A stretch of 64,000 bases of DNA, from positions 78,607 to 142,606 of the forward strand of contig JACPKL010000001.1 of assembly GCA_016187035.1 (NCBI GenBank), in the 5' to 3' direction. This document shows positions 19,841-48,349 of this stretch, piece after piece (position 1 is the stretch's first letter; each line of letters starts with the position of its first letter). Both the position numbers and the translations under genes were made by a program. Under the pieces are notes generated by a model. It saw only the letters and a list, made by a program, of their open reading frames with translations, was not told where the DNA came from and did no database searches. This DNA comes from Candidatus Daviesbacteria bacterium. Its GTDB lineage: Bacteria; Patescibacteriota; Microgenomatia; Daviesbacterales; UBA10151.

Positions 19841-19914
19841 TACGCCTGAGAGGACTCGAACCTCCAATCTCAAGATCCGGAATCTCGTGCTCAGTCCAAT
19901 TAAGCTACAGGCGC
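19841..19914 (-). tRNA. tRNA-Arg(CCG)
   Basis: Minus strand: gcgcctgtagcttaattggactgagcacgagattCCGgatcttgagattggaggttcgagtcctctcaggcgta. It folds as a cloverleaf, and CCA is not encoded. Confidence 0.85.
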
Positions 19915-19915
19915 A

Positions 19916-20000
19916 TGGCGGAGGGTGCAGGAGTCGAACCTGCTAGGGCTTTCACCCGATGGTTTTCGAAACCATTACTTTACCGTCCAGTCCACCCTCC
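19916..20000 (-). tRNA. tRNA-Ser(CGA)
   Basis: Minus strand: ggagggtggactggacggt...atggtttCGAaaaccat with a long variable arm and encoded CCA. Confidence 0.85.
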
Positions 20001-20005
20001 TTAAG

Positions 20006-20079
20006 CGCCCCTGGAAGGACTCGAACCTTCGACCTCAACGTCCGCAACGTCGCACTCTAATCCACTGAGCTACAGGGGC
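20006..20079 (-). tRNA. tRNA-Arg(GCG)
   Basis: Minus strand: gcccctgtagctcagtggattagagtgcgacgttGCGgacgttgaggtcgaaggttcgagtccttccaggggcg. The anticodon loop is ttGCGga. Confidence 0.8.
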
Positions 20080-20124
20080 AGTATGGGTATTTTAACAGAA
20101 ATCTAGTCTGAAAGCTGTGGCTAC

Positions 20125-20454
20125 TTGACAAAAAGTAATGAGTTTGATATGCTTTCCTTACTTATGCAACAAAGCATTACTCCAAATTCAACCTCCAGAG
20201 AGATTGTTTCCACTGTTACTGGTAAAGGCCAGGTTACTGTCCCTAGGGAAGTCAGAAAACATTTAGGGATTGATATAAATGACAAAATTGCCTTCATTAT
20301 TGAAGAAGGTGGAGACGTGAAGGTAACACAGGTCAAATATCCAGATATTCAGTCTTTACGAGGGGTTGCAGGAACTCTAAAACAGCCTCTAACTTTTAAG
20401 GAGATACAAAACATAGCCAGGGAAGACAGATTAGCTAAGAAATATGCCAAATGA
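20125..20454 (+). CDS. AbrB/SpoVT-family antitoxin (start uncertain)
   Basis: 'KGQVTVPREVRKHLGIDINDKIAFI'. It overlaps the downstream PIN gene by 11 nt. Confidence 0.75.
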   Translation: MTKSNEFDMLSLLMQQSITPNSTSREIVSTVTGKGQVTVPREVRKHLGIDINDKIAFIIEEGGDVKVTQVKYPDIQSLRGVAGTLKQPLTFKEIQNIAREDRLAKKYAK

Positions 20455-20869
20455 TCCTCCTGATCCATATGTAGATACTGATGTTATTATCCGACTGATA
20501 ACTCACGATGACCCTAAAAAACAAGAAGCTGCTGCTAAACTGTTTGGAAAAGTTGAGAATGGTGAGTTAATCCTGACTGCCCCGGATACAGTCATTGCTG
20601 ATGCTGTTTTCGTTCTCTCTTCTCCTAGACTCTATAACCTTCCCAGAACAGAAATCAGAGATGTTTTGACTTCACTTCTACGTTACACCAACTTCAAAGT
20701 CGATAATAAACAGGCGGTTATAAATGCTTTAGACCTTTATGCTTCTACTAACCTCGACTTTGGAGATTGCATTCTTATTGCCTTAACAGCTCAAACCGAA
20801 GCTAGAGAGATTTACTCCTATGACCGTGATTTTGACAAAATTCAAGGAATAGTTAGAATTAAGCCATGA
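20444..20869 (+). CDS. vapC: PIN-domain toxin (VapC family)
   Basis: 'YVDTDVIIRL' and 'IYSYDRDFDKI'. Confidence 0.8.
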   Translation: MPNDPPDPYVDTDVIIRLITHDDPKKQEAAAKLFGKVENGELILTAPDTVIADAVFVLSSPRLYNLPRTEIRDVLTSLLRYTNFKVDNKQAVINALDLYASTNLDFGDCILIALTAQTEAREIYSYDRDFDKIQGIVRIKP

Positions 20870-20886
20870 GTTAAGCAAATCAATGA

Positions 20887-21408
20887 CTATCTATGTGTAT
20901 TTTCCAGGGGGAAGTGTTTTTGCAAACCTTCAGACCATTTTTCCATCCATGTTCTATATGGTTTTTCGTAAAATGGTAAGAATCTAGATAATATTTTTTT
21001 AATCTTTTCCTCATCAACCTCCTCTAATACAATTATCAGTTGCGCTGGAAAGTTGAAACGGGTTTGGATATGAACAACTCTATGCCCTTCCTTTTCTTTA
21101 AACCAAAAGAAAGATAAAAAATGCCAAAAATAGAAATCATCCCCAATAGTAACACCCTGGGTAGAAATTCTATAGTTAATTCTATGAGGAGGAACAAAAG
21201 CCAGTACGTAGGTGACAAAAGCTACAGATAAAATAGCGCCGATCAGTAAAAACTCCCTGGCCAAAAGTAGAATTAGTACCAAAAGAATCACAATGATAGC
21301 TAAAGTAGTATAAAAAGATCTGTCCTTTTTTCTAAAAGGACGGGCTGGGGCATCCCAAGCAAGAAGTGTTTTAATTTCTTCTTGGGCAGGTTGCTCTTTT
21401 TTGGGCAT
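20887..21408 (-). CDS. membrane protein with a cytoplasmic PH-like domain
   Basis: Two TM segments followed by a soluble domain. No recognisable catalytic motif. Confidence 0.5.
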   Translation of the reverse strand: MPKKEQPAQEEIKTLLAWDAPARPFRKKDRSFYTTLAIIVILLVLILLLAREFLLIGAILSVAFVTYVLAFVPPHRINYRISTQGVTIGDDFYFWHFLSFFWFKEKEGHRVVHIQTRFNFPAQLIIVLEEVDEEKIKKILSRFLPFYEKPYRTWMEKWSEGLQKHFPLENTHR

Positions 21409-21467
21409 GTTTTCCTTTCACTGATAATTATACACCTTTAAAGAAAGGTGGAGAGGGTGGATATATG

Positions 21468-21554
21468 CGGAGAGGGTGAGATTCGAACTCACGGCTGACT
21501 TGCGTCAGCAGAAGTTTTCAAAACTTCCGCACTCGGCCACTATGCGACCTCTCC
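21468..21554 (-). tRNA. tRNA-Ser(TGA)
   Basis: Minus strand: ggagaggtcgcatagtggccgagtgcggaagttTGAaaacttc with a long variable arm (tgctgacgcaagtcagc) and T-arm gagttcgaatctc. Confidence 0.85.
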
Positions 21555-21555
21555 A

Positions 21556-21644
21556 TGGCGGAGGGTACAGGATTCGAACCTGTGGGCGGCTATTCACCGC
21601 CGCGGATTAGCAATCCGCTCCATTAACCACTCTGGCAACCCTCC
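21556..21644 (-). tRNA. tRNA-Ser(GCT)
   Basis: Minus strand: ggagggttgccagagtggttaatggagcggattGCTaatccgc with a long variable arm and encoded CCA. Confidence 0.85.
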
Positions 21645-22528: not shown

Positions 22529-22955
22529 GGGGATGTATAGTTTCGACAGGATTGCTCTTTAAAAACTGCAAGTCGAAGAGGAAACATTATTCGTTAAATA
22601 TTGTTTCAAAACATACACGCCAAAAATACTGGCCGTGATGATGTAGTAAAAGCTGTAAAAAGCTTCGGTAGCGATGTTCTCGCCTTTATTGGTGGAACTC
22701 AAACCGCTGCATACGCAGTAGCTTAATCATCTACTTTAGTAACTCTTCTTTCTGACGAGAGTCTAAGGTATGTACAAAGTCAGGATGCACAATTTTACTT
22801 AATCCAGGTAAAATTGGACAAGCAATTTGGATTAAGCGTTAATCTTCCTGCTAACGGGTTACAAATTAACGCTCAAAAAAATACATTAGCTAAACTTGTA
22901 GAAGTTTTTTTGGAAATATTTCTGGACGGCGGTGCAAAACCGCCCATCTCCACCA
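22529..22955 (+). ncRNA. ssrA: tmRNA (SsrA)
   Basis: 5' ggggatgtatagtttcgacagg and 3' ggacggcggtgcaaaaccgcccatctccacca. The acceptor stem has a G3:U pair. The internal tag frame ends ...TAAYAVA-TAA (stop at 22724-22726). smpB lies adjacent. Confidence 0.9.
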
Positions 22956-26146: not shown

Positions 26147-27922
26147 TTACTTAAGTTCTACGTTAAATAAAGGTCCAACTATTTGAATATTTGCAGGGGC
26201 TCTTAGGTTAAAAAAGTTTTTAAATTCTGACCCGTTAAAAGTTTCTGAATGACCATCTCCTGAGATAGTCACTAAAGTAGACATACCGGTATTAAAATCT
26301 GCCAAAACAGAAACAATGGAGACCTGGTTAAACGGAGCGCCGCCCCTGTTTTTTAACTCCTCCTTAACTTTATCATGATTCCAGGTATCAGTACCTTCCG
26401 GATTAGGTTTATCTACCTGATATAGATGTTCTGACAAACCGCTGTCACGCTTGGTAAGCATAATCATATTGGCAATATCGGCAACTTCCTCAGGCTTTAA
26501 CCAGGCTGATTTAGCATATTCAGACCTGAAACCCTGGGCTGCATAAAAACAAGGAGAATCTTTATCATAAGCTTTACTAAATAGGTCAGCAAAAGAACCT
26601 ATATCTCCATTTGTATCTTTGGACCTTTTAGTAAAAGAGCGGTCACTCCAACCAACATCCTGGGCTGAAAAAGTATATCCCCCATCTGTTGATGAATACC
26701 AGGCAGTCACAGCTGACCCGCCTGAAATCATAGTCTTGCCTTCGGTAAGTTTGACAGCCTGCTCCCAATTACCTCCTTTATTGCCTCCTTTATAAACCTG
26801 GCAGGATTGGGTGGTACAAATCTCTTTTGAGCCATTGTTAGTATAAGATAGGGCATAAGAGCGGGCAGCAATAGCCTGGGCTTTTAAAGCCTCAATCGGC
26901 CAGGACCCAGGCATCTCATAAATACCTAAAAGATAAGTTTCCATGCTCATGGAACCAAAACCGGCAACAGAGATATTAATATTTGGTTTTTGCTCAAAAC
27001 CAAAGTTAGCAAAATATGCTCTTAAAATATCTTCATGATTTTGCCCTGCCTGGGCTCTGCCTAAGGCTCCATATTGATTCATCCCTACTCGATGAGGAAT
27101 ACCAAAAGTAAAAAAAACAAAAGCAGGCCTAAAGCCAGGATCCAATTTCCGATCATCGCTGCAAAATAAAGGGCCTGCCCCCAAAGAAGTAGGCAGATTT
27201 AAAGAGGCTTGTCTTTGAGCAATGATAGCTTGCTGTCTTGCCGAAAGCTGGGCAATTTGTTTAGATATATCAGCCTGGTAAGCTTTAGCTTTTTTAATCT
27301 CCCCTCCTAAAAAAGAGGCGTTTTTATCCACTTCTGCTTGTAAGCCGGCCAGCCTTGCTTTATCTTTCTCCAGTTTGTTTTTTTCACTGAGCAAATCAAC
27401 TACCTCTTGAGTAATTGAGGTAATGATTTGCTGGTCTTCTTTGGCAATATTTTGGCGGAAAGATAATTCTCTGAATAAATCTGCAGAATTAATTGAGGAA
27501 AGTATCACCAGCATTGGGTTGACAAGATATGAACGGATATAATATGCCCTGACTCTTTTTTCCAAAAGAGCATGCTGCAAGGCTAACTTATCTTCCCTTA
27601 AGTTTAGATCATTTTGTTTTTGCCCAATAGTTGCTGCTAAATGATCAATGCCAGCCTGGATTTGGGCAAGCTGCAGCTCTAAAGATTTTAACTGGCCTTC
27701 TAAAGGTTTTTTAGCCTTTTCTACCTGCTGCCATTCACTGCTTAGTTTATTGATCTGGTTTTTGATATCATCCAGCTCATCAGCATAAACAGGTAAAGGC
27801 AAATGTAAAATGTAAAGTGTAAATATCAAAATGACAATGCAAAGTTTAAAATGTCTTAAAAATTTTGAATTTTGATATGTATTTTTGATCTTTGAATTTT
27901 GGTTTTTGAATTTCCCTATCAT
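26147..27922 (-). CDS. SpoIID/LytB-domain peptidoglycan-remodelling protein with an N-terminal coiled coil
   Basis: 'EALKAQAIAARSYAL' and 'CTTQSCQVYKG' are SpoIID signatures. Long coiled-coil N-terminal half. The signal peptide is encoded by a low-complexity tract. Confidence 0.8.
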   Translation of the reverse strand: MIGKFKNQNSKIKNTYQNSKFLRHFKLCIVILIFTLYILHLPLPVYADELDDIKNQINKLSSEWQQVEKAKKPLEGQLKSLELQLAQIQAGIDHLAATIGQKQNDLNLREDKLALQHALLEKRVRAYYIRSYLVNPMLVILSSINSADLFRELSFRQNIAKEDQQIITSITQEVVDLLSEKNKLEKDKARLAGLQAEVDKNASFLGGEIKKAKAYQADISKQIAQLSARQQAIIAQRQASLNLPTSLGAGPLFCSDDRKLDPGFRPAFVFFTFGIPHRVGMNQYGALGRAQAGQNHEDILRAYFANFGFEQKPNINISVAGFGSMSMETYLLGIYEMPGSWPIEALKAQAIAARSYALSYTNNGSKEICTTQSCQVYKGGNKGGNWEQAVKLTEGKTMISGGSAVTAWYSSTDGGYTFSAQDVGWSDRSFTKRSKDTNGDIGSFADLFSKAYDKDSPCFYAAQGFRSEYAKSAWLKPEEVADIANMIMLTKRDSGLSEHLYQVDKPNPEGTDTWNHDKVKEELKNRGGAPFNQVSIVSVLADFNTGMSTLVTISGDGHSETFNGSEFKNFFNLRAPANIQIVGPLFNVELK

Positions 27923-27929
27923 GCCCTAG

Positions 27930-27974
27930 AATTCTACCATTTTTAAATCCTTTGTGCTAAGCTTTAGGTTGATG
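27930..27974 (+). promoter_or_regulatory. copy 1 (diverged) of the repeated leader/promoter-like motif 'aattctaccatttt..tcctttgtgctaagcttt'
   Basis: It contains TGcTAAGCT (an extended -10-like sequence) 9 nt upstream of the ATG at 27972. Related copies lie at 28879, 29365 and 29941. Confidence 0.4.
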
Positions 27975-28868
27975 ACTAAACTTAGCCTTTGGTTAATGCC
28001 AATTATTATTTTGATTTGGCTGTTATCCGCTCCTCAAGCTTACGCGAAAATAGTAGCTCCAACAGGAGATTTTTGTATATCCAATAAGATTAACGGCGCT
28101 TATATAGATTCATCCGGGGAAAACCTAATAGTAGAATATTCAGGGATTGACTCAACTCCAACTTTATTAAATATCCAGAAAATTGGTAATATTCAAGTCA
28201 ATGCCAGCTCTGCTCAAGCATTAAACCTGGGAGAAAATTGGGCTTTTAGGATTCAGGTTCCTAAACCATCCAGAGACCTGCTTAATTCTGAATTTAAATC
28301 TTCTACTAAAACTCAAGTTAGCATTGATTACTCTTCTGATCTGCAGAAACCAAACACCGATCTGGTGACTTGCAGATCCCAACGCTCAGATGTGCAGCTT
28401 GCCAGAATTACTCCACAACTTGAGCAAAAGGTAAATGAAGCTATCCAAAAGCAAGCCCAAGCCCCTGGAGCTGCAGCTTCTGCTGCTCCTCCTGTTGCCC
28501 ATCCCGCATCTCCTAATCCACCAGGTCTTAACCTGCAAAGCAAGCCCTGTGATCCAAATGACAAAGCAGCAGAGGCCAAGTTTGGGCCTTGTCCTGCAGG
28601 AATTGGGGAATTTGAGCAAATTTTTAGCAAAATTATTACTGTCATAGTGGGACTGGCCTTTGTGGTAATGTTAGTAATGTTAATTTGGGGAGGTATTAAA
28701 TACTTAACTTCAGGGGGAGAACCTAAAGCAATCCAATCTGCCCATTATACAGTGACCTGGGCTCTTTTGGGAGTATTATTTATGGCTGTTGCCTGGCTGA
28801 TTTTACAACTTATTAGAATCTTTACAGGCATTGATGTAACTATATTTAATATCAGAGTCCTTATTTAA
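27972..28868 (+). CDS. secreted domain fused to a C-terminal VirB2/TrbC-like T4SS pilin hairpin
   Basis: Signal peptide MTKLSLWLMPIIILIWLLSAPQAYA and a Pro/Ala-rich linker. The C-terminal 'VGLAFVVMLVMLIWGGIKYLTSGGEPKAIQSAHYTVTWALLGVLFMAVAWLILQL' matches the motif shared by the other five pilin-like ORFs. The start was moved from the GTG at 27954 to the ATG at 27972. Confidence 0.65.
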   Translation: MTKLSLWLMPIIILIWLLSAPQAYAKIVAPTGDFCISNKINGAYIDSSGENLIVEYSGIDSTPTLLNIQKIGNIQVNASSAQALNLGENWAFRIQVPKPSRDLLNSEFKSSTKTQVSIDYSSDLQKPNTDLVTCRSQRSDVQLARITPQLEQKVNEAIQKQAQAPGAAASAAPPVAHPASPNPPGLNLQSKPCDPNDKAAEAKFGPCPAGIGEFEQIFSKIITVIVGLAFVVMLVMLIWGGIKYLTSGGEPKAIQSAHYTVTWALLGVLFMAVAWLILQLIRIFTGIDVTIFNIRVLI

Positions 28869-28878
28869 TCTTTAAAAA

Positions 28879-28905
28879 TGTGCTAAGCTTTGGGTAATGT
28901 CCAAA
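28879..28905 (+). repeat. copy 2 of the 27-nt motif tgtgctaagctttgggtaATGtccaaa
   Basis: Identical to copy 4 over 27 nt. It is followed only by a 19-codon ORF (MSKIMSYFEVRRWKLEDRS*). Confidence 0.7.
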
Positions 28906-28972
28906 ATAATGTCTTATTTTGAGGTTAGACGCTGGAAACTAGAAGATAGATCTTGATGTTAGAAGATAGAAG

Positions 28973-29284
28973 TTAGAAGGTTTTCCAATTCCTTTGTAGA
29001 TTAGTTAACTTACCGCCTAATTGATTATACCTGGTAAGTAAACTATTGCAAAAATCCCTTTGCCAATAATCTAAATCTCTAGCAGTCTCAATATGAACTT
29101 CCATTTCGTTTGCCGAACCAATTGATGCATCCAGGTGATGTTTAAATTCTTTCTCAAATCTCCTCTTTGCCCAGCCTTCAGCAATATTTGCAGGACATGA
29201 TTTTGAAGCTCTACGCATCTGGGATACCAAATCGTTTCTCTCGTAAACAGGAAGTTTCTTGATAGATTGATGAATCATTATCAT
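28973..29284 (-). CDS. four-helix-bundle protein (23S rRNA intervening-sequence protein family)
   Basis: 'LVSQMRRASKSCPANIAEGWAKR' and 'GSANEMEVHIETARDLDY' are family hallmarks. It lacks the usual N-terminal helix, so it is possibly truncated. Confidence 0.8.
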   Translation of the reverse strand: MIMIHQSIKKLPVYERNDLVSQMRRASKSCPANIAEGWAKRRFEKEFKHHLDASIGSANEMEVHIETARDLDYWQRDFCNSLLTRYNQLGGKLTNLQRNWKTF

Positions 29285-29364
29285 TAATCTGATCTTATCA
29301 ATCTAGCTTCTATCTATTCAAGCTTCAAATTCTAGATTCAAATTTCTAATGTCCATCCTCAAAA

Positions 29365-29414
29365 AATTCTACCATTTTCCTATCCTTTGTGCTAAGCTTT
29401 GCTTAATGTCCAAA
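29365..29414 (+). repeat. copy 3 of the leader motif (long form)
   Basis: aattctaccattttcctatcctttgtgctaagctttgcttaATGtccaaa, followed by an 8-codon ORF that runs into the hicA 3' end. Confidence 0.7.
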
Positions 29415-29415
29415 G

Positions 29416-29646
29416 TTATTTCAGCAAGGTAACAAATTCTTCTTTAGTAATTCTCAAATCCTTTTTAATAATTTTTGTCAGTAAACCAATACCAATAGTA
29501 TCCGCAGGATGAACAGGTATAGTCACCCTTCTGCCATCTGAATGTATATAGACTGCATGACTACCGCTTTGATCCCGAAATTGAAAACCCAAATTTAATG
29601 CTACCTTTACTAAATCACGCGCTTTAACTTGGGGTAATTTTGACAT
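29416..29646 (-). CDS. hicA: HicA-family mRNA interferase toxin
   Basis: 'KARDLVKVALNLGFQFRDQSGSHAVY' is the YcfA/HicA fold signature. It directly abuts hicB. Confidence 0.85.
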   Translation of the reverse strand: MSKLPQVKARDLVKVALNLGFQFRDQSGSHAVYIHSDGRRVTIPVHPADTIGIGLLTKIIKKDLRITKEEFVTLLK

Positions 29647-29889
29647 TTAGATGGCAACTTCAAGAGACGTTAGACTAACAGGTTGCATTCTGGGAATTTC
29701 TTGCCTGTCTTCTTTGGAAATCCTTAAATTAAGTTTGATAGCATCACGGATATTGGTAATTGATTCCTCCAGCGTCTTCCCTTGAGTATGACAACCTTGT
29801 ATTTCAGGACAATCAGCCACAAAAAATCCCTCCTCATCTTTTTCTATGATAACCGGAAAGTTGTAGGTTTTAGTTTTAATCTTTTTCAT
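29647..29889 (-). CDS. hicB: HicB-family antitoxin
   Basis: 'YNFPVIIEKDEEGFFVADCPEIQGCHTQGKTLEE' (UPF0150/HicB N-domain). Start trimmed to the Met at 29889. Confidence 0.8.
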   Translation of the reverse strand: MKKIKTKTYNFPVIIEKDEEGFFVADCPEIQGCHTQGKTLEESITNIRDAIKLNLRISKEDRQEIPRMQPVSLTSLEVAI

Positions 29890-29940
29890 GAAACAATGAT
29901 ACCATAGACTAAAGTCTATGGCTAGACCCATGAATCTCTT

Positions 29941-29967
29941 TGTGCTAAGCTTTGGGTAATGTCCAAA
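29941..29967 (+). promoter_or_regulatory. copy 4 of the 27-nt motif, here driving or initiating the 29959 pilin-fusion gene
   Basis: tgtgctaagctttgggtaATGtccaaa. The extended -10-like TGcTAAGCT ends 7 nt before the ATG, which implies a very short leader or none. Confidence 0.4.
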
Positions 29968-31113
29968 GTAGTTTTTATAACCATTTCATTATTGGTTGTG
30001 ATGGTAGCTTCTGCTTTATTAGCTTACCCCGTACATGCAGCATTACCAAGCTGTTCTAGCCCCACTGTACAAACTAATCCCACTCCTTTAATCAACAATC
30101 AGCGCAAAGCTAAATTTACTATAAATATTGGTAATAACCAAAATTATGCTGATTATAAAATGGAATTTCGATGCGGAGGCAATGCTGTAGTAGACGCAAC
30201 AAAAGAAGGATCAACAGATATTTCTGTGGAGTTTGATAGGTCAACTACTTCATCACCATGTGAGTTTAGCGCAAACACCCATGAAATAGTAGTTAAAGCT
30301 GTAATTAGCAACCAAGATGTGGATCAATGCACAGCTACTTACAGGGTGCTTGATTCCAATACCCAATGCAGGTTAACTATTAATCCGGACAGCGGAATTA
30401 GTTCTGCTACCAAATTAGAAGTTTCAGGAGAGAACTTAACCAATGGGGGCAGATTTTCTGTTTTTGTTGATGATGATGCTATTGATTTTGCCAATAATAT
30501 AACAGGCCGTGCGCTTATTGATTTACCAGCCGGACCAGGAGCCGGCAATGTAGATACACCTCAGTTTGGTCCAAAATCAATACCTCAGGAATTGATGATA
30601 CCGGGCGCACATATGATTTCTTTGCGGCAAAAAACAAATACCAGAGATTGGTTTAATTTACGAAAATCCGAGGCAGATTTTTTTGGCCCTCCTGTATGTC
30701 ATATTACCTTCACAGTAGGAACACCTACTAACCCAGGTGGGGTTGCTACTGCTGGAGCTGCGCCTAAAGTTTGTAAAACAGGAGATCCAACTTGCACTTT
30801 AGGCGGAGGAATACCCTGCCCTGATGGTAGTAATGGATTTTCCACTGCGATTGGCTGCATACATACTAATCCTGTTGAATTTGCCAAGGATATTTTGAAA
30901 TTTGCCATAGGGATAGGAGGAGGGTTGGCATTTTTAATGATGCTTTTGGGAGCATATCAGATGTTAACCTCCCAGGGTAATCCTGATATTTTAAAAGCAG
31001 GACAGGAAAGATTAACCTCTGCTGTAATAGGATTATTATTTGTAATTTTTGCTGTGCTGTTTTTACAGATAATTGGGGTAGGAATATTAGGCTTACCTGA
31101 TTTCAAACCATAA
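29959..31113 (+). CDS. secreted Cys-containing domain fused to a C-terminal VirB2/TrbC-like pilin hairpin
   Basis: Signal peptide MSKVVFITISLLVVMVASALLAYPVHA. The C-terminus 'GGGLAFLMMLLGAYQMLTSQGNPDILKAGQERLTSAVIGLLFVIFAVLFLQIIG' carries the pilin motif. Confidence 0.65.
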   Translation: MSKVVFITISLLVVMVASALLAYPVHAALPSCSSPTVQTNPTPLINNQRKAKFTINIGNNQNYADYKMEFRCGGNAVVDATKEGSTDISVEFDRSTTSSPCEFSANTHEIVVKAVISNQDVDQCTATYRVLDSNTQCRLTINPDSGISSATKLEVSGENLTNGGRFSVFVDDDAIDFANNITGRALIDLPAGPGAGNVDTPQFGPKSIPQELMIPGAHMISLRQKTNTRDWFNLRKSEADFFGPPVCHITFTVGTPTNPGGVATAGAAPKVCKTGDPTCTLGGGIPCPDGSNGFSTAIGCIHTNPVEFAKDILKFAIGIGGGLAFLMMLLGAYQMLTSQGNPDILKAGQERLTSAVIGLLFVIFAVLFLQIIGVGILGLPDFKP

Positions 31114-31122
31114 TAATATAGT

Positions 31123-31154
31123 GATTTACGATTTAAGAATTAAGATTTAAGAAT
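31123..31154. repeat. left 32-nt low-complexity inverted-repeat arm flanking the four-helix-bundle gene
   Basis: gatttacgatttaagaattaagatttaagaat matches the reverse complement of 31521-31552 at 26/32 positions. Confidence 0.55.
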
Positions 31155-31155
31155 A

Positions 31156-31542
31156 ATGAAAGATGGCAAAATACAGTCTTTTACAGATTTGAAAGTTTGG
31201 CAAGAAGGGCATATTCTAGTAGTTATGGTTTACAAAATAACTAAATATTTTCCTAAAGAAGAAACTTACTCGTTAACTGATCAGATGAGAAGATCAGCAT
31301 CTTCCATTACAGCAAATATTGCGGAAGGTTTTGGCAGACATTCTTACAAGGAAAAATTGCAGTTCTATTACCTTGCTCAAGGATCATTAACTGAACTAAA
31401 AAATTTTATACTTATCTCAAAAGATGTAGGATACCTTGATACCGAGGACTTCAACTCTTTAGTAGACCAGGCTAATCTAACTCATCAGATTCTACAGGGA
31501 TTTATTAAAAGCACAAAAACATTCGTAAATCATAAATCATGA
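31156..31542 (+). CDS. four-helix-bundle protein (23S rRNA intervening-sequence protein family)
   Basis: 'FTDLKVWQEGHILVVMVYKITKYFPKEETYSLTDQMRRSASSITANIAEGFGR...YLAQGSLTELKN' is a full-length family signature. Confidence 0.88.
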   Translation: MKDGKIQSFTDLKVWQEGHILVVMVYKITKYFPKEETYSLTDQMRRSASSITANIAEGFGRHSYKEKLQFYYLAQGSLTELKNFILISKDVGYLDTEDFNSLVDQANLTHQILQGFIKSTKTFVNHKS

Positions 31543-31552
31543 ATCTTAAATC
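31521..31552. repeat. right 32-nt inverted-repeat arm (overlaps the four-helix-bundle stop and the next pilin start)
   Basis: attcgtaaatcataaatcatgaatcttaaatc. It contains the TGA of the 31156 gene and the ATG of the 31539 gene. Confidence 0.55.
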
Positions 31553-31889
31553 TATTCAATTAGCGTTACAATTCCCAGGAGGACAAACAATTGAACCTAA
31601 CCCTAATATCCCGGGTTTGGGTAGTTTAAAGCCTGAATTTAAGGATTTGGCTTCTTTTATCTCTCCTTTATTAAACATTGTTTTTTATGTAGCAGTTTTT
31701 TTGGCTTTTTTCTACTTTGTCTGGGGAGCCTGGGCTTATATATTTGCCTCCGGTAATAAAGAGAACTTAGCTAAAGCCAGAGCCAGAATTATGTGGGCTC
31801 TAATAGGATTAATGGTGGTATTTTCAGCCTTTTTTATCGCTAAATTTGCCTCAGAAATATTGACACCCAAAGGAGGACTGCCATTTTGA
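31539..31889 (+). CDS. VirB2/TrbC-like T4SS pilin
   Basis: Two-TM hairpin 'VAVFLAFFYFVWGAWAYIFASGNKENLAKARARIMWALIGLMVVFSAFFIAKF'. Confidence 0.65.
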   Translation: MNLKSIQLALQFPGGQTIEPNPNIPGLGSLKPEFKDLASFISPLLNIVFYVAVFLAFFYFVWGAWAYIFASGNKENLAKARARIMWALIGLMVVFSAFFIAKFASEILTPKGGLPF

Positions 31890-32278
31890 TGATTAGAATC
31901 AAGAAGCATGAATCAAGAATCAAGGTACTTATATTTGTCTTATCCATGATTCATAATTCAATATTCATGATTCAACCTGTCTATGCACAGGTTAATATCG
32001 GAGATAAATTTGGTTTTGGGGATATTACCTCTTTCGGTGATGCTACTTCTAAACTAATTGCTCCTGCTTTTTCTCTATCTACAGCAGCGGTAGTAATTTA
32101 TTTTCTTTTAGGGGCATTTAAGTATTTAAGTGCAGGTGACAGCAAAGAAGAGGTGGAAAAAGGCAGGCAGATGATTACCCATGCCATAATTGGTTTTATT
32201 TTATTAATGTCAGCTTTTTTAATTTTGCAGTTTTTATTGTCTTCTCTTTTTGAAACAACAGGTTTAAAAATTATTTAA
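31886..32278 (+). CDS. VirB2/TrbC-like T4SS pilin
   Basis: Signal peptide ending IQPVYAQ. Hairpin 'AAVVIYFLLGAFKYLSAGDSKEEVEKGRQMITHAIIGFILLMSAFLILQF'. Confidence 0.65.
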   Translation: MMIRIKKHESRIKVLIFVLSMIHNSIFMIQPVYAQVNIGDKFGFGDITSFGDATSKLIAPAFSLSTAAVVIYFLLGAFKYLSAGDSKEEVEKGRQMITHAIIGFILLMSAFLILQFLLSSLFETTGLKII

Positions 32279-32284
32279 GGTTAA

Positions 32285-33499
32285 TTACACCAGTTTCATA
32301 TTGTCTGGAATGTAGACTAATCTTTTCCCGGCAAAACCCAACCACTTTTTAAAAGTATCCAATTCAGGAGATGCAAAATTAAGAGTGTAATAAGTAGACC
32401 TGCCTGCTTCCCTTTTTTTCAGAATATCCTGGTCTACTGCTCTTTGCAGGTATGTCACCAGAGTTTGACGGGCTATCTTTCCTCTAGTTGCTTTAGCCAG
32501 ATTCTTAAACTGTATTTCACTTCTTTTGATAAATGGTTTTAGGACAACAGGGATTTGACCTTCTAATTCTAGTTCTAGTCTCCCTATAAACTCATTCCGT
32601 TTTGTCTCAAGACTGGTTTTCACCACACCAATTATTGAGAGCACTAATGCCTCAAGAACAAAATTTACAAAATGATTTAGGTTTTTGCGCTCCAGTGAAT
32701 ACAACAAATACTTATAATATCTGGCCTTTTGTTTATGATAGTAGTACGAAGTACTGTAAAGATTTTTACCATTTATGCCTAAGCTTCTTAAAAGCACATG
32801 CTCCAGACTGCGGCAAACTCTTTTATTCCCATTATTAAAAGCATGCAAACCATAAAGCGCGGTATGAAAGATGGCTACCCCGTCAACTGTCTGATGCTTT
32901 TGTAACCAGTCAATTAACTCCTTTACCCCACTTTCTATTTCTTCATATGGCGCTGGAGTGTAACTGCCTACTCTAATCATATTATTATCCCGCCACTTCC
33001 CTGACCTATAGACTGTAAAATCAGATAAATACTTTTGAAATAGATCTAGTCCTTGGGTTAAATTTTGATGCAGCTTTTTTATTTTCTCCGGGGTTAACTC
33101 TGCTATCTTGATGGGTTGCTGATTTAAATTGCGGAAAGTTTTAGCAATGTTGAAAAATTCTAACTGATCATAGTCTTTTTGGGTTAACTTTACCCGCGCT
33201 TTTAGTAATTTAGCAACAAAATCATAATCTGGATCAGAGATAAGCAAATTATAAACATCCTGGGCTTCTGGAAGCGTTAAGTGCGAATCCTCTGCTTTAG
33301 AAATGGCAAAGGAAGCAAGCAGTTCATTTTTACTGATCAAGTTTCTTTCAATATCAGGATTTAAGAACACCTGCTCATATTCAGACAGTTCCCTGTCAAG
33401 CGATAAAATCTCCTTATTGGTAAATGGTTGTATTTTTGGAATCCAGACAAATTGTGACAAAAAGCCTTTAGAAAAGGGTCTTAAAATAAGCGTATTCAT
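32285..33499 (-). CDS. Fic/DOC-family protein with a C-terminal winged-helix-like domain
   Basis: The Fic motif variant 'HAFNNGNKRVCRSLEH' compares with consensus HxFx[DE]GNGRxxR, with Lys replacing the second Gly. Confidence 0.8.
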   Translation of the reverse strand: MNTLILRPFSKGFLSQFVWIPKIQPFTNKEILSLDRELSEYEQVFLNPDIERNLISKNELLASFAISKAEDSHLTLPEAQDVYNLLISDPDYDFVAKLLKARVKLTQKDYDQLEFFNIAKTFRNLNQQPIKIAELTPEKIKKLHQNLTQGLDLFQKYLSDFTVYRSGKWRDNNMIRVGSYTPAPYEEIESGVKELIDWLQKHQTVDGVAIFHTALYGLHAFNNGNKRVCRSLEHVLLRSLGINGKNLYSTSYYYHKQKARYYKYLLYSLERKNLNHFVNFVLEALVLSIIGVVKTSLETKRNEFIGRLELELEGQIPVVLKPFIKRSEIQFKNLAKATRGKIARQTLVTYLQRAVDQDILKKREAGRSTYYTLNFASPELDTFKKWLGFAGKRLVYIPDNMKLV

Positions 33500-37096: not shown

Positions 37097-38905
37097 ATGC
37101 ATGCCCCAAGAATCAAGGTTTTAATAATCACTATTTTTTCCATAATTCTTGCTTCATTATTCATAATTCAACCTGTTTATGCGCAAAACTCTGCTTCTCC
37201 TTCCTCCACCTCGAAGGAGTCAAAGCCCACCTTCGAGGTGTCTCAAACGCTACCAAGTACTATCCTTCCTACTTCTCCCATTTATACAGACCTTTTAGTC
37301 CATAATATATTCCATACTTTTTCCTGCTTAGCTGTAGGGCAGTCTGTCATTAGCCAGCCCTGTTTAAATTATGTAAAAGGGGTGCCGGTTTTATCCTCGG
37401 TTAATTTGTCAGGAGGAGCTTTAGGAACAGTTGCAGGAGTAATTGGGGCTTTATACCAAAATCCACCTGTGAGGACTTATGAATCCTTGGCTTCACTGGG
37501 GCAGACTTTGGGAATAGTTAAAGAGGCTAAAGCCCAGGTAGTAGGATCTGGAGCAGGAGTGCTTCAGCCTATTCAAACCCTTTGGCAGGTATCCAGGAAT
37601 ATTTCTTATGTGATCATGATTGTGATTTTTGTAATCATAGGTTTAATGGTAATATTTCGGCAAAGAATTAACCCCCAGACAGTTATTACTGCCCAGGCAG
37701 CCATCCCAGGATTAGTAATAGGCTTAATTTTAATTACCTTTAGCTACTTTTTAGCAGGACTGGTTTCTGATACGGCCTTTGTTGGAACAAATTTAGTTGG
37801 AGCCTACTTTTCTGCAGTCAGAGGAGAAGCAAGTAACCCTCAAAATTTGGTTCAAACTATAAGCAATCAAAATGTTCTGGATATTTTTGGACCATTTACC
37901 AAAATTGTAGGTTTAAGAGAATTAAATGGCGCTATAAATTCTATCTGGCCTAGTCTGGCAGTTTCTGGCAGCAGCTTTTTGCCCTGGGCTTTTGGCCCGC
38001 AACAAGTTCTACAAAGCCTTTCAGGAATCCTAATTTCCCAAGTCATCCTCCCTTTTGGCAGTATGTTCGGAGGTGCAGGACAAATAGTTGCGGGTATAAT
38101 TACACTTACAGGCGCCCTGGCAGTTCCTACAACCATGATTACTGTAGCTCTATCTTTTGTAGCCATGGTGATTTTAATCTATGCAATGTTCAGATTACTT
38201 TTGCGTTTGATTAACAACTATATAACTATTATTTATTTAACTGTAACAGCCCCATTCCAATTTTTATTTGCAGCTTTACCAGGCAGACAAGGAATTGCTA
38301 CTGGCTGGATATTAAATTTCTTAGGTAATATTTTAGCATTTCCAGCAGTCTTGGCTGTATTTTATTTTGTGGCTTTTATTTTAGGACCGGACGTTGTAAA
38401 CCAGCACTGCACAGATCCATGCCCGTTTAAAGTCTCCTACATTAACAATTCCCAAAATAGAGCAACTTCTGTATACGCCCAAGAACCTACTAGCAGAATC
38501 AGTGTCACAGACACATCAACTTTTCCTTTGTTAGGAGGTTTTGATTTAGGGTTTGTGAATTTACTTTTAGCTTTTGGGGCGCTGGTAGCCTTACCTGCTA
38601 TTCCTGATGCTATCCAAAGAACTGTTGGTAAGGTTTCCCAGGCAGGGCAATTGATAGGCCAGGAGATTGGGGCAGGAACCGGCGCTGGACAAAGATACGC
38701 AGGCCAATTCCAGCAAGGAGTTACAGGTTTTGCCGGACAAGTAGGAAGAGTGTCAGATACCATAGGTTTAGCTCCTGTAGATGTAACTGACCCGACAACT
38801 GGCAAAGTGCAAACTGAATGGAGATATAATCCATTAGTATCTCAGGCTGGAACAGGACGTAAAATTAGACTATGGTTTGGCAAAAGATTTGGCAAGAATC
38901 CTTGA
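37097..38905 (+). CDS. VirB6/TrbL-like polytopic membrane protein
   Basis: The signal peptide ends IQPVYAQ, followed by at least 7 predicted TM segments and a Gly/Gln-rich C-terminal tail. It lies directly after the pilin genes. The start was set at the ATG at 37097 (the track uses the TTG at 37058). Confidence 0.55.
   Translation: MHAPRIKVLIITIFSIILASLFIIQPVYAQNSASPSSTSKESKPTFEVSQTLPSTILPTSPIYTDLLVHNIFHTFSCLAVGQSVISQPCLNYVKGVPVLSSVNLSGGALGTVAGVIGALYQNPPVRTYESLASLGQTLGIVKEAKAQVVGSGAGVLQPIQTLWQVSRNISYVIMIVIFVIIGLMVIFRQRINPQTVITAQAAIPGLVIGLILITFSYFLAGLVSDTAFVGTNLVGAYFSAVRGEASNPQNLVQTISNQNVLDIFGPFTKIVGLRELNGAINSIWPSLAVSGSSFLPWAFGPQQVLQSLSGILISQVILPFGSMFGGAGQIVAGIITLTGALAVPTTMITVALSFVAMVILIYAMFRLLLRLINNYITIIYLTVTAPFQFLFAALPGRQGIATGWILNFLGNILAFPAVLAVFYFVAFILGPDVVNQHCTDPCPFKVSYINNSQNRATSVYAQEPTSRISVTDTSTFPLLGGFDLGFVNLLLAFGALVALPAIPDAIQRTVGKVSQAGQLIGQEIGAGTGAGQRYAGQFQQGVTGFAGQVGRVSDTIGLAPVDVTDPTTGKVQTEWRYNPLVSQAGTGRKIRLWFGKRFGKNP
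37207..37240. repeat. second copy of the 11-bp-stem hairpin (inside the VirB6-like ORF)
   Basis: cacctcgaagg-agtcaaagccca-ccttcgaggtg has the same loop and 5' flank (ttcctcc) as 22957-22996. Two stem positions carry compensatory changes. Confidence 0.6.
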
Positions 38906-38909: not shown

Positions 38910-41900
38910 TTAACGGCCCATTTTTTCAAATAGCCATTGCCTTCTTGTCTTCTTTCCTGCAGGATCTAATAAAGTAGGCTTTTCAAGCAACTTATACCAC
39001 CACTGCGTATCTTCATATGCATCTCCTCCTTTTTCAGGATCAACAAGCCAGTCTATAAAACTATCAAAGAATAGTTTTTGGCTATGTCTGGAACTGCCAG
39101 TATTCATCTCTGACCAAACTAAACCTTCATTAAAGCTGCCATCATCTTTAAAGATCTCTTTTCCCTCAGTTAATAAAGCGCCCTGGGCATTCCTGACAGT
39201 TGATTCTTTAACCCTGATCAGTTTCAACACCCTGTCTAACCTGCCAAAAGACTCAAGCATAGCATGCAGTAGCTCCACTTCGACATCCTTGCTTTTTCCA
39301 GCCATTATTTCACTCATTTTTTTCTGTAATTCATTTAACTTTTCATTATTATTGGTTGGCTTTTCATATAAACCTTCTACATCTATTCCTTTTTCAGAAT
39401 CTTCATAACCATATAATGCCCCAAACAACATCCAGCCATAACGCATTTCATTAATAAATTTAGTATTGGCAAACTGCCCAGCTATTCTTTGACCTACAAT
39501 ATCGCCAACCGCATCCCCGTACATTTCAATAAGTCCTAATACCCCTTTTGCCCCTAATTTATCCGGATGAGAAGATTGATGCATTGGTGAACGAGCAAGC
39601 TCAGCAGCATACCTTCTGGCAAATCTTTTATGATGAGCGCCAGTATATTCTATATTGCCGACAATAAACCTTAACACTCCTCCAAAATCTTCACGATTAT
39701 ACCCAACACCCATTTCATCTCTGGTTAAATCCTGGGGAAGAGTTGATTCAAACAATTCTCTGACTATTTGCCAATGTCCATAATTTGACTCTTCAACCGC
39801 AGCATCAAATATCATAATTTCCCTGTTCTGTTGGAAAGCAGGCAGTCTGGCTGTTCGCCTCAGGGTTGGATCAATAACCAAAAGTTGAGTTGCTGACAAA
39901 TGCTCATCTTCTGGCCGAGATACTCCTGCCCTGATACGTTTGGCTGCAGCGATAGTATCTTCGTCTGTAAGCCTATGCCTGTCTTCCTGCTGGTAAGACA
40001 AATAGGTATTAGATGACCAAAGCGAAAAAACGCTTTTGGATGCAGCTTGTATATCTACTACTTCTTTTCTAATGCCATCAGCGCCAAGCACATTTCCGTC
40101 GGCATCAAACTTAATAGCAACAAAAGCAAGTTTTGCTTCAAAACCCTTTGCAAGCACCTCCTGGATGGCTGCTTCCCGCGCCTGATCTACTGCTGCTTTT
40201 CTTTCTTTTGCAGACTTATTAGCATGTAAAATCTTAGTACGGGTGACAGCATATTGGATAAACTGAATAGCCAAATCAGTAGGTAAACTATCAACAACAT
40301 CAACTCTTTGTTCAGGAGGAATTGTTTGATAAAACTCCTGGTCATCTGGATTTAAATGCGCTACTCTTTCACCTTCTGGTAGATGAGTCAGGCTTCTTAA
40401 TTTATACAAAACCCGTCCGATTCTTTGTTCTGTTGTTAGTCGGCCATCTGACACATTTTTTAAATCTTTAAGATGTAGTTTATAGTCTCGAATAAAGGAA
40501 TTTCTATCTACAAATAACACACCCCCGCCTCTTCTGACTTTTTCTCCTGTTACCCCAACCATTTGAAAAGCAACGTCAAAGTTGGCTTCAGCTTGAGCGC
40601 GGGCAGCCTGATATACTGCTTGTTCTTTTGGCGTTAAGTCTTCTAATTTCTTACCATTTTTCAGCTGATACTGAACACTACCTAACTCTATAGATTTTTG
40701 TAAGCTGCTAGGCAGCTGGCTGAGTTTTATTCTCCCAGATTCCAAATCCTTCTCAAATTCCAAAAAGTTTTGAATATGGCCACCATCTTTTTCAAATCCT
40801 TGGTATAAATTTTTAAACTCCTGTTCGGATTGATGAACTCCTATATGCTCCAAGTTATTCTTAAAGGCATTGTGGATTTTCTGATCATCTTCGCTTAATT
40901 CATTTAATTTTTTACCACTTTTAAGTTCTCTCTCAATTCTGCCTAATGCCAATGCCCTAACTTTTCTTGCTTCAACTGATACTGGTTGATCTGAGTTAAG
41001 AGTTTCATCATGCGGATCATAATACTTAAGCGCAACACCCATACCTTCTTCAATTAATATTTTCTTAATTTCGCCTTGGAGAGGATTTTGTGTATCTGTA
41101 TCATCGCCAATTTGCCCCCTGGAACCACCTGAATTATAGAAAAGGGTAAACCTGGGATCATTATCAAATCTCCACAAAAAGGCGCCAACCTGCCCGTCTC
41201 CTGATCTGGCTAATCTAACCCATCTTTGAGGCCCTTCATGCAAAGCCATCGCCATCATGAACCTGTGATAAAGATCCATATTATAGGCTTCAGCCGAATA
41301 ATCAGCGCCCCAAACATATGACAAACCTTCGAACTCTTGTCTTAATTCTTCTGCAAATTCCCTTGTGACAAGACCTGTCTTTATCTGATCAGATGCTACC
41401 CGCCCAAGAACTTTGGCAAAATTTTCCAGATGAACAAAAAGTTTTTCAGGAGCTAACCCTAAACCCTTATTTTTTATCATCTGCAGGAAGGTATCCTTAG
41501 CCTTGACAAACTGCTCAGGAGTTTTGGCTAATACCTCATAATATTCAGGGTAATGAGCGCTGGCCCGCCAAAAAGTTTCTGTTGATTCCTCATCTCTGAG
41601 TTGTTGAAAATCAAGACGATACTCTCCCTCAATATAAGGAGGCTGTTCCTGACCAGTTAACAACCTTTCAAATCTAGCTAAAGCCCGATCAATATAAGGA
41701 AGCCATACTTCAGCCAATACAACAACCTCAGGATCGCTTGCCAAGTCTAGAAAAGTAGCTTCCGCAGCCATGATGGCTTCTGGTTTATCACCTGGATTAC
41801 TAGGTATAAGACTTCTCCTTAACATTGTCCGGACTTGATCGCGGGGAATCCTACCATCAGCATAACCTTGATAAATTTGGTTTAAAACATCATCTGCTCC

Positions 41901-42821
41901 GCGTAAAAGCCCTTTGTTTTTGGCAGCTCTGAAATATTTTAATAACCCTTTCTCTATATCTACCCTCTCAGCAGCAGGAGTCCTTAAGTTTCTGCTTCTT
42001 TCAATTAAGGCAACCAATCCACCCTTTTGCTCTAGATCAGATAAATCTTCATTAAACGGGCCTTCTTGAGTAGCTTGAGGTGGTTGTCCTTGCTTTCCCT
42101 CTGTTAAATATGCATGAACTGCCTCTTCAACACTTTGATACTTTGACTTTACTTTATATTTTTCCCTAGGATCATAGCATTTAGCTCCTGGCCGTGTTTT
42201 TTTAAAATCCCTGACATACTTTTGAAGATCCTTATAGAGCTGATCTAAATAGGTACCATTTTTTTCGTTATATATATCTGGATTAGTAGCAGATAAAAGT
42301 CCTACTTTTACATTGTATCTATCGGTATAAGATAAGGTCGTTTCTAATCTAATAATCTCTCCGACAACCATTCTGCATTTTTCTGGACTTGTCTCCCATT
42401 CTAGATTACCTGGACCTTCTGGCCCTCTATCCCCCCCCCCCTCCTCCCCCCCCGTATTACCCCCTCCGCCAATAAGCCTATAAATGGGTTGACTAGATGC
42501 ATCTTCTCCGTAATAACCATACTTTATACCATTATCTTCAAAAATACTTATTGGTTGCCGGGGAGGTTTTGGTCCTGAACCAGCAGGAAAATTGATATTT
42601 ACAGAAGATGGAACTGCTTGTTCTGATGCAGATGAGGTAGAAAACATACCGGAACTACCTATACTTATACCCGAAGCCTGATCAGGCTGAGTACCTGACA
42701 ATCCAATATTCCCCTGTTTGGATTGAGCGCCTACTTGCTCAGCACGAGGTGCAGTAGCTACGGTAGCTGCTGATCCTCCTACACCTGGTATGTTTTCTGC
42801 CATATGTTCTGGTCCTGCCAT
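38910..42821 (-). CDS. 1303-aa orphan protein with a Gly-rich N-terminal region
   Basis: Long uninterrupted ORF with no signal peptide or TM seen and no recognised motif. The N-terminal 140 aa are disordered and Gly/Ser-rich. Confidence 0.75.
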   Translation of the reverse strand: MAGPEHMAENIPGVGGSAATVATAPRAEQVGAQSKQGNIGLSGTQPDQASGISIGSSGMFSTSSASEQAVPSSVNINFPAGSGPKPPRQPISIFEDNGIKYGYYGEDASSQPIYRLIGGGGNTGGEEGGGDRGPEGPGNLEWETSPEKCRMVVGEIIRLETTLSYTDRYNVKVGLLSATNPDIYNEKNGTYLDQLYKDLQKYVRDFKKTRPGAKCYDPREKYKVKSKYQSVEEAVHAYLTEGKQGQPPQATQEGPFNEDLSDLEQKGGLVALIERSRNLRTPAAERVDIEKGLLKYFRAAKNKGLLRGADDVLNQIYQGYADGRIPRDQVRTMLRRSLIPSNPGDKPEAIMAAEATFLDLASDPEVVVLAEVWLPYIDRALARFERLLTGQEQPPYIEGEYRLDFQQLRDEESTETFWRASAHYPEYYEVLAKTPEQFVKAKDTFLQMIKNKGLGLAPEKLFVHLENFAKVLGRVASDQIKTGLVTREFAEELRQEFEGLSYVWGADYSAEAYNMDLYHRFMMAMALHEGPQRWVRLARSGDGQVGAFLWRFDNDPRFTLFYNSGGSRGQIGDDTDTQNPLQGEIKKILIEEGMGVALKYYDPHDETLNSDQPVSVEARKVRALALGRIERELKSGKKLNELSEDDQKIHNAFKNNLEHIGVHQSEQEFKNLYQGFEKDGGHIQNFLEFEKDLESGRIKLSQLPSSLQKSIELGSVQYQLKNGKKLEDLTPKEQAVYQAARAQAEANFDVAFQMVGVTGEKVRRGGGVLFVDRNSFIRDYKLHLKDLKNVSDGRLTTEQRIGRVLYKLRSLTHLPEGERVAHLNPDDQEFYQTIPPEQRVDVVDSLPTDLAIQFIQYAVTRTKILHANKSAKERKAAVDQAREAAIQEVLAKGFEAKLAFVAIKFDADGNVLGADGIRKEVVDIQAASKSVFSLWSSNTYLSYQQEDRHRLTDEDTIAAAKRIRAGVSRPEDEHLSATQLLVIDPTLRRTARLPAFQQNREIMIFDAAVEESNYGHWQIVRELFESTLPQDLTRDEMGVGYNREDFGGVLRFIVGNIEYTGAHHKRFARRYAAELARSPMHQSSHPDKLGAKGVLGLIEMYGDAVGDIVGQRIAGQFANTKFINEMRYGWMLFGALYGYEDSEKGIDVEGLYEKPTNNNEKLNELQKKMSEIMAGKSKDVEVELLHAMLESFGRLDRVLKLIRVKESTVRNAQGALLTEGKEIFKDDGSFNEGLVWSEMNTGSSRHSQKLFFDSFIDWLVDPEKGGDAYEDTQWWYKLLEKPTLLDPAGKKTRRQWLFEKMGR
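42431..42453 (-). repeat. homopolymeric G11 and G8 tracts on the coding strand
   Basis: The plus strand has an 11-nt C run at 42431-42441 and an 8-nt C run at 42446-42453. They encode GGNTGGEEGGGD. Confidence 0.9.
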
Positions 42822-42973
42822 AATTTCCTTTCTAGTTCTATGACATTAGATTAAGCATAGAACAAGTTAACTCAAAACTCAAATGTCAAAACTCAAAACT
42901 ACAACTTAAATCTTAAAACTAAAAATTATAATTTGCTTGAGATAAAACTGATAAAATCCTGATGAATTTAAGG

Positions 42974-48344: not shown

Positions 48345-48349
48345 GAAGA

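Follow-up and report, generated by a model that had tools for sequence, protein, structure and literature searches.

A four-helix-bundle gene between inverted heptamer arrays in a pilin operon of Candidatus Daviesbacteria: a probable cassette of the 23S rRNA intervening-sequence kind outside rRNA

The window analyzed here is a stretch of 64,000 nucleotides from Candidatus Daviesbacteria, which belongs to the Microgenomates within the Candidate Phyla Radiation (CPR). Between two pilin genes, positions 31123-31552 of this window contain a gene for a four-helix-bundle protein (hb1) enclosed by two arrays of heptamers in opposite orientation. This segment is very probably a discrete cassette of the same kind as the intervening sequences (IVSs) of 23S rRNA that bear an open reading frame (ORF), located in this case outside rRNA. 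IVSs and the S23p ORFs within them have been known since about 1990; neither their function nor their mode of movement has been established, and the idea that they are mobile elements, with an ORF that serves mobility, has long stood without a test. In the locus described here and in its relatives, the ORF and its inverted arrays of about five heptamers are cleanly inserted between protein-coding genes. On this reading the rRNA IVS is one of the places in which a far broader family of cassettes has landed, and the IVS/S23p question becomes experimentally approachable.

Arms and gene of the cassette

The left arm (gatttacgatttaagaattaagatttaagaat, read directly from the window) and the right arm (attcgtaaatcataaatcatgaatcttaaatc, the reverse complement of which is gatttaagattcatgatttatgatttacgaat) match in inverted orientation at 26 of 32 positions. 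A sequence-only reading of this DNA had reported this match and had placed nothing but a four-helix-bundle gene between the arms; direct reading confirmed the match, and hb1 was the sole long ORF found there. The ungapped inverted-repeat score of the 86-nt flank against the 90-nt flank had a z of 7.4, and none of 200 shuffles scored as high. Tandem Repeats Finder resolved the arms into 4.3 copies of GATTTAA and 3.9 copies of TAAATCA, giving a period of 7 nt, and the "inverted repeat" is therefore one heptamer array in two orientations; the words of about 8 nt described in the sequence-only reading have to be replaced by about five GAxxxxx heptamers per arm. The 5' arm begins 9 nt past the stop of the upstream pilin gene, and its in-phase GA series runs on past the ATG at 31156, where the next units are GAATAAT and GAAAGAT. 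The 3' arm codes for the C-terminal tail of hb1, FVNHKS plus the stop (TGA, 31540-31542), and also, as had already been noticed, for the ATG (31539) and first codons of the next pilin gene (MNLKS). Scanning for promoters and terminators revealed nothing above chance, and the left arm has no promoter-like site. An Rfam scan of the window assigned no family to the arms and detected no rRNA in the window, and both genes flanking the cassette are T4SS_pilin genes. Since it does not lie in rRNA, the cassette is not a 23S rRNA IVS by membership.

The protein encoded by hb1 matched the Pfam family 23S_rRNA_IVP (PF05635) with 128.9 bits (cut-off 33.8) and TIGR02436 with 119.8 bits (cut-off 24). It was also similar (E = 1e-18) to XCC0516, whose entry in the Protein Data Bank (2GSC) holds five chains and which has been called a homopentamer (PMC4990558). 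Pfam and TIGR02436-type profile searches detected no catalytic domain in its 128 residues. The dN/dS values against orthologs, 0.06-0.08, show strong purifying selection on the protein core. The right arm codes for a conserved C-terminal tail, K-T-F-I-N-H-K-S, with one variable residue (H, P, R, L or Q). This residue corresponds to the seventh base of a heptamer, whatever its codon position; in the tail it is the nucleotides, not the protein, that are constrained.

Occupied and empty sites among relatives

A genome scan with one genome per species found 431 relatives of hb1 and returned 80 species-level loci, at 60-90% protein identity. In nearly all 80, a left GA-heptamer array abuts the ATG and an inverse array covers the last codons and the stop. 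The arms have a median length of 29 nt and a median complementarity of 83%, and for the flanks a duplex energy of -23.2 kcal/mol was computed, whereas shuffles gave -13.2; z was below -2 in 61 of the 80 loci. It was these comparative data, and not shuffling alone, that answered the earlier caveat that low complexity might explain part of the match. The heptamer consensus is G-A-T/a-T-T/a-A-N. Exactly five in-phase units were counted in 53 of 79 left arms and in 55 of 79 right arms, five units also occur in several other subfamilies, and the start codon stands at a fixed phase of the array in many loci.

The contexts of these loci are highly diverse, with 64 distinct pairs of neighbors among 76 species-level loci. 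The neighbors sampled are housekeeping genes of many kinds (for instance ThyA, ComEC, MreB, AsnB, SucD and L7/L12). Across the loci, neighbors lie close (median gaps of 37 nt upstream and 20 nt downstream), and most are transcribed in the same direction as the cassette gene (60/73 upstream, 51/73 downstream). Homologs with 75-80% protein identity were found in unrelated places, such as beside rplL/rplJ and beside a Trans_reg_C regulator, and in nine loci representing four kinds of context the similarity stops at the outer ends of the arms. These results showed that arms and ORF are inherited and relocated as one unit.

The pilin site of the window was then compared with its orthologs. Relatives with 84-91% protein identity (L003, L006, L010 and L011) have the same arms and the same gene order: an oppositely oriented SpoIID gene comes first, then a module that varies (toxin-antitoxin or ATPase), then the genes for the big pilin, the four-helix-bundle protein and the small pilins. 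Among close relatives the cassette is stably inherited at this site. In a wider set of orthologous SpoIID-pilin loci drawn from metagenomes, many loci were empty and others occupied. At the empty sites (L103, L105, L108, L113, L127, L131, L157, L159, L169 and others), the distance from the big-pilin stop to the small-pilin start is -4 to +14 nt, heptamer arrays are missing, and the small-pilin start is conserved as M-K/N-K-L-A-L-x-L-P-G. The point of insertion can be read from the pair of empty L103 (TAA-a-ATG) and occupied L106 (TAA-a-[cassette]-ATG). An hb1-type cassette is located at this junction in the window, L106 and L149. Other four-helix-bundle subfamilies, each with its own words, occupy the same junction in L122 (AGAGTCA, five copies), L162 (GTATTAT) and L170, and the ORF at this junction in L116 appears, from its sequence alone, to be a distant member of the family. 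In L115, with another subfamily (TAGCGGC words), and in L142 a cassette is found one junction further on. L104 has a decayed copy, a 196-nt insert in which the two arms are retained together with the 3' half of an ORF of the L122 type. The suggestion of the sequence-only reading that such genes are mobile cassettes with terminal inverted repeats (TIRs) is supported by the empty sites, by the 64 contexts and by the arms accompanying the gene. Of the two outcomes that it had named as refuting, neither was observed: the flanks are more complementary than shuffled sequence, and the gene is missing from many orthologous loci.

Insertion has also affected the host operon. In the window the ancestral start site of the downstream pilin gene now reads ATT (31554-31556) and the ATG in use comes from the cassette arm; because of this, the downstream pilin has become dependent on the insertion. 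The start codon lies inside the arm in L010 and L011 as well, and just past it in L003 and L006.

Relation to known elements and alternative explanations

The cassette was compared with the IVSs of Leptospira, Coxiella burnetii and Brucella and with the Xanthomonas-type S23p ORF. At the level of sequence it shares every feature of a 23S rRNA IVS that was tested: a PF05635/TIGR02436 ORF, enclosing inverted repeats able to form a long stem with the ORF in its loop, and tandem heptamers right 5' of the start codon. It also has the sporadic distribution of IVSs, which have been described as selfish. In the Coxiella IVS the family ORF is located in the stem loop, and two to three GACAGAT heptamers and one GACAGAA directly precede the S23p ATG, the first repeat being where RNase III cleaves (PMC4990558). 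An Azospirillum plasmid locus (L180) proved to be a 23S rRNA gene (906 bits) interrupted by a family ORF with inverted arms of five ACAGAGG/ACGGATG units, and the plasmid cassettes of Calothrix, Geminocystis, Picosynechococcus, Stanieria and Riemerella have inverted heptamer arms with a word of their own each. This common build in an rRNA IVS and in plasmids of cyanobacteria and Bacteroidota suggests one family of mobile cassettes. There are differences: the cassette of the window lies in the stop-to-start spacer of a pilin operon and not in helix 25 or 45 of 23S rRNA, its relatives occupy dozens of other operons, and strong purifying selection acts on hb1, while decay has been reported for the Coxiella ORF. 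The family has been described inside rRNA insertions, those of CPR included (PMC11270868), and a literature search, of incomplete coverage and thus no proof of novelty, turned up no account of cassettes outside rRNA that have inverted arms of five heptamers.

The cassette consists of an S23p / 23S_rRNA_IVP gene between two inverted arrays of about five heptamers each and sits in the spacer of a few nucleotides from the large-pilin stop to the small-pilin start. Based on these likenesses, we propose that it would be transcribed within the host operon, riding on host transcription. In the RNA the arms are predicted to form a helix, about 32 bp long and interrupted at each seventh position by a mismatch of 1 nt, with the ORF looped out. 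In a modeled 454-nt RNA (31112-31565), both the minimum-energy fold and the centroid close the ORF by an arm-arm stem. Across the loci, heptamer positions 1 to 7 pair in 98, 98, 81, 85, 73, 91 and 50% of cases; given the low value at position 7, the predicted helix is mismatched, often A.A, at every seventh position. By analogy with the IVSs of Coxiella, Leptospira and Salmonella, RNase III would cut this helix, so that an insertion inside an operon would be tolerated. The same helix is predicted to bury the start codons of both the cassette gene and the downstream pilin gene. More speculatively, the protein, whose homolog is pentameric in crystals, may recognize the five-unit arrays; the peak at five units and the five chains of the 2GSC crystal make this attractive. 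A further-reaching version, which we consider tentative and probably incorrect as a whole, is that the hb1 protein may form a pentameric ring reading its own flanking array, one subunit per GAxxxxx unit, with each subfamily co-evolved with its own word. Such self-recognition would underlie the spread or maintenance of a pan-bacterial family that includes the 23S rRNA IVSs and the "CRISPR-associated" 23S_rRNA_IVP genes, and free heptamer palindromes, those in signal peptides included, would be non-autonomous derivatives or footprints.

Several results weigh against the interpretation as an IVS-type cassette. Some concern movement: the comparison of L103 with L106 gave no target-site duplication of 2 nt or more; no transposase family was matched by the cassette ORF or by the ten ORFs scanned in 26147-33499; and in the sample of one genome per species there were no cassette copies more than 95% identical in different contexts, the best pairs in unrelated contexts being about 77-79% identical. 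As the cassette is also stable in close relatives, its mobility is shown at the evolutionary time scale only. Other results concern pairing in RNA. Cognate arms pair at 23.2 of 32 positions and non-cognate arms at 22.5, a weak advantage, and within a locus partner units match at 5.05 of 7 positions and non-partner units at 4.89 (p = 0.28). Counts of G.U versus A.C mismatches, intended to separate selection at the RNA level from selection at the DNA level, disagreed, with 50 versus 52 (no excess of G.U) in one count and 72 versus 43 (a moderate excess) in another; sense and antisense duplex energies are equal; and a motif search of the window revealed no RNase III signature. In addition, the cassette of Pseudanabaena (L175) has direct and not inverted arrays. 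Since being partners does not make two units more alike, the complementarity of the arms may simply follow from the presence of one word in both. Each arm behaves like an array of a single word specific to the subfamily, which fits protein recognition equally well as RNA pairing. The "terminal inverted repeats" may thus function not as sites for a transposase but as an RNA stem or as arrays bound by protein.

Some of these same results favor a transposon acting at the DNA level, in which the arrays would be true TIRs, the encoded pentamer would bind them in double-stranded or hairpin DNA as a mobility or end-recognition factor working with host enzymes, and the RNA stem would be incidental. 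We consider this unlikely. Every protein subfamily has its own heptamer word in both arms, the arms are one-word arrays and not helices compensated pair by pair, the equal energies of the two strands fit, and the number of units peaks at five, the number of chains with which the homolog 2GSC crystallized. Ralph and McClelland also proposed, as cited in PMC4990558, that the ORF is a mobility component. However, the 128-aa protein has no detected catalytic domain, no target-site duplication and no recent copies were seen in the comparisons above, and the strong co-orientation with neighbors is expected of an element depending on host transcription and less of a transposon. Similarity to miniature inverted-repeat transposable elements and other TIR transposons extends to short length, inverted ends, presence/absence polymorphism, an internally deleted derivative (L104) and an ORF-less palindrome (48349-48414). 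The cassette differs from them in lacking a transposase and a target-site duplication and in having ends made of tandem heptamer arrays instead of a unique inverted-repeat sequence; near-identical copies at different sites were not seen in the sample of one genome per species. A classical TIR transposon was consequently rejected on transposase and target duplication, despite the inverted repeats at its ends.

Two other kinds of element resemble the cassette in part. Like an integron gene cassette, it is a promoter-less, co-oriented and tightly packed single gene with an imperfect palindrome at its border. It has arrays at both ends and not a single 3' attC, and its insertion sites are scattered through the genome; no integrase was present among the ORFs of 26147-33499 and no attI site nearby. 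The arrays at both ends and the lack of an integrase among these ORFs ruled out this assignment. The heptanucleotide repeats of cyanobacteria and Beggiatoaceae (short tandemly repeated repetitive sequences, STRR; TAACTGA, PMC4679880) likewise comprise two to six heptamers at gene boundaries and often end just 5' of a start codon, and they occur in taxa rich in four-helix-bundle genes. They are direct arrays with no associated gene, whereas the cassette arrays are inverted pairs around one gene family, and the connection is only a lead.

A host regulatory device, with the arms serving as hairpins of the pilin operon, for instance to couple translation or to stabilize mRNA, and with the gene between them an ordinary, pilus-related operon member, is very improbable. 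The order of big pilin, four-helix-bundle gene and small pilins is kept in L003, L006, L010 and L011, the downstream pilin takes its start codon from an arm, and the cassette is 85.6% conserved compared with about 66% for its flanks, all of which would suit such a device. On the other hand, pilin operons without the gene are also without the arrays, and the same arms surround the gene beside rplL, regulator genes and other unrelated genes. Because just 12 of the 76 species-level loci are near pilin genes, a functional link of the cassette to pilins was rejected. The empty sites and unrelated contexts largely refuted this explanation.

Still less credible is a remnant of a diversity-generating retroelement with hb1 as its Avd accessory protein. 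The Avd proteins share the four-helix-bundle fold family with hb1, are pentameric, and bind nucleic acid and reverse transcriptase. The hb1 protein gave weak matches to bAvd (22.6 bits) and DivGenRetAVD (23.4 bits), but the curated cut-offs, 40 and 80 bits respectively, are far higher, neither the ten ORFs scanned in 26147-33499 nor the related loci examined included a reverse transcriptase, and there is no pair of template and variable repeats; membership was therefore rejected. Finally, a chance likeness of two AT-rich, low-complexity tracts, suggested by the degenerate arms and by the abundance of heptamer arrays in this genome, was refuted by the shuffles, by the inverted orientation in nearly all of about 80 loci, and by arms that come and go together with the gene.

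Two loci bear on the published description of the family as "associated" with cas loci (PMC3936711). In L175 (Pseudanabaena) the four-helix-bundle gene lies between cas6 and cas4, and in L177 (Picosynechococcus) between cas10/cmr2 and cmr3, with heptamer arrays on the flanks in both. Both genes thus look like cassettes that were inserted in the spacer of an operon. By extrapolation from these two inspected loci, the published association might reflect spacer insertion and not a Cas-related function, which would be the simpler reading.

Second cassette, ORF-less palindromes and other features of the window

The coordinates of the cassette, its host genes and other heptamer-bearing features are collected in Table 1.

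Table 1. Features of the cassette region and further heptamer arrays in the window (arms are given as heptamer units).
Feature	Position	Strand	Remarks
Upstream host gene, large T4SS_pilin-domain protein	29959-31113	+	384 aa; its stop forms the left side of the insertion site
5' arm	31123-31154	+	GATTTAC GATTTAA GAATTAA GATTTAA GAAT
hb1, four-helix-bundle gene	31156-31542	+	128 aa; 23S_rRNA_IVP / TIGR02436 / S23p family
3' arm	31521-31552	+	ATTC GTAAATC ATAAATC ATGAATC TTAAATC
Downstream host gene, small T4SS pilin	31539-31889	+	Starts MNLKS; ATG inside cassette arm
Second cassette, with hb2	28917-29364	-	Arms 28917-28985 and 29285-29364; TAGAAGA-type words
Solo palindrome, ORF-less	48349-48414		gatttaagatttatgaattatgattgaagaat followed by attcgtaaatctttaatcttaaatcgtaaatc; junction of ORFs 47622-48344 and 48373-50220
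Inverted heptamer pair	31892-31978	+	AGAATCA / TGATTCA words; encodes signal peptide MMIRIKKHESRIKVLIFVLSMIHNSIFMIQPVYA of pilin gene 31886-32278
Two heptamer arrays	27788-27914	-	Encode n-region and h-region of the signal peptide of SpoIID-domain protein 26147-27922

The window contains a second family member, hb2 (28973-29284, minus strand), whose 103-aa product is 30% identical to that of hb1 and lacks about its first 20 residues. It is flanked by a 48-nt inverted repeat (28917-28964 and 29317-29364) that is 71% complementary, in agreement with the earlier remark that this gene is surrounded by a different vocabulary. The region between the SpoIID gene and the big pilin gene, where hb2 is located, holds small modules that differ among relatives and is a hot spot of cassette-like gene turnover: HicA/HicB, hb2 and an extra pilin in the window (28973-29931), BrnT/CopG in L003 and L006 (about 1845-2660), an AAA_14 ATPase in L010 (1222-2355) and nothing in L011. 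Four copies of TTTGTGCTAAGCTTTGGGTAATGTCCAAAG, about 30-37 nt each (27953, 28879, 29388 and 29941), are confined within the window to this 2-kb stretch. They resemble an extended -10 promoter with an almost leaderless ATG behind it, and copies 1 and 3 also contain a minus-strand promoter-like site, TTAGCA-N18-TGnTAGAAT, that points toward the SpoIID gene and hb2. The hb2 cassette and the HicA/HicB module lie between copies, and short remnant ORFs have been left by the copies (MSKIMSYF... and MSKVISAR-stop), which suggests that both modules arrived together with duplications of a divergent promoter region.

Heptamer arrays are frequent in the window: at a threshold of 16 of 21 matches, 11 arrays of period 7 were found against 0.2 expected, and none of period 4, 5, 8 or 10. 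Heptamer arrays lie within 80 nt of a gene boundary in 8 of 13 cases, compared with 25% of random positions. The ORF-less palindrome at 48349-48414 looks like the two arms of hb1 fused, being about 83% identical to such a fusion in an alignment of 83 nt, of which 17 nt spanning the point of fusion match exactly; its fold has -21.5 kcal/mol (z = -3.46). A strict hairpin finder together with a regular expression for GA words returned few solo palindromes, four in 1.38 Mb. At one pilin-pilin junction, L128 (3837-4002) and L130 (4863-4992) have wholly different ORF-less heptamer palindromes, one of ACTCAGA-type words (fold -49.7 kcal/mol) and the other of AATTTAA-type words, in strains that are 98-99.9% identical on both sides. 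Turnover of such palindromes appears fast.

In these genomes the ends of genes are remodeled by heptamer arrays, from which start codons and entire signal peptides derive. The sequence-only reading had pointed out that similar word tracts encode the n-regions of signal peptides, and RIKVLI was indeed found at 31916 and 37109. In the signal-peptide arrays (27788-27914, 31892-31978, 37109-37174 and the SpoIID 5' ends of L102-L170), a purine-rich arm gives a K/R-rich n-region and the complementary T-rich arm a hydrophobic h-region. In the SpoIID orthologs the mature protein starts from a conserved ADEIEDLQ, and the signal peptides are hypervariable, unrelated and built from other heptamer words, including perfect arrays of four TTTTCAA in L127 and four CTATACC in L131, which could shift the reading frame by slippage. 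An array of eight AACTCAA units (42869-42925) is located upstream of the minus-strand 1303-aa ORF 38910-42821. At a distance of 3.6 kb, a second array (46496-46530) has identical words in the same orientation and adjoins a cobalamin riboswitch (46371-46497), and in L104 the region coding for the SpoIID signal peptide contains similar words (AAACTCA).

Other features of the window were also recorded. Positions 42430-42453 are nearly all C on the plus strand and G-rich, with a G10 run, on the coding minus strand; this tract, which may be prone to slippage, belongs to the N-terminal, glycine-rich part of ORF 38910-42821. Upstream of the cassette region there are a cluster of tRNA genes on the minus strand, with five within 19841-21644 and a further one at 14454-14525, and a gene for tmRNA (22529-22955, 125.6 bits). 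A perfect 39-nt tandem repeat with 2.2 copies and 100% match, TAGATCAGATTTAGGAAACTGATCTGTTGCTTTGCAAGA, is located between ORFs at 56587-56671.

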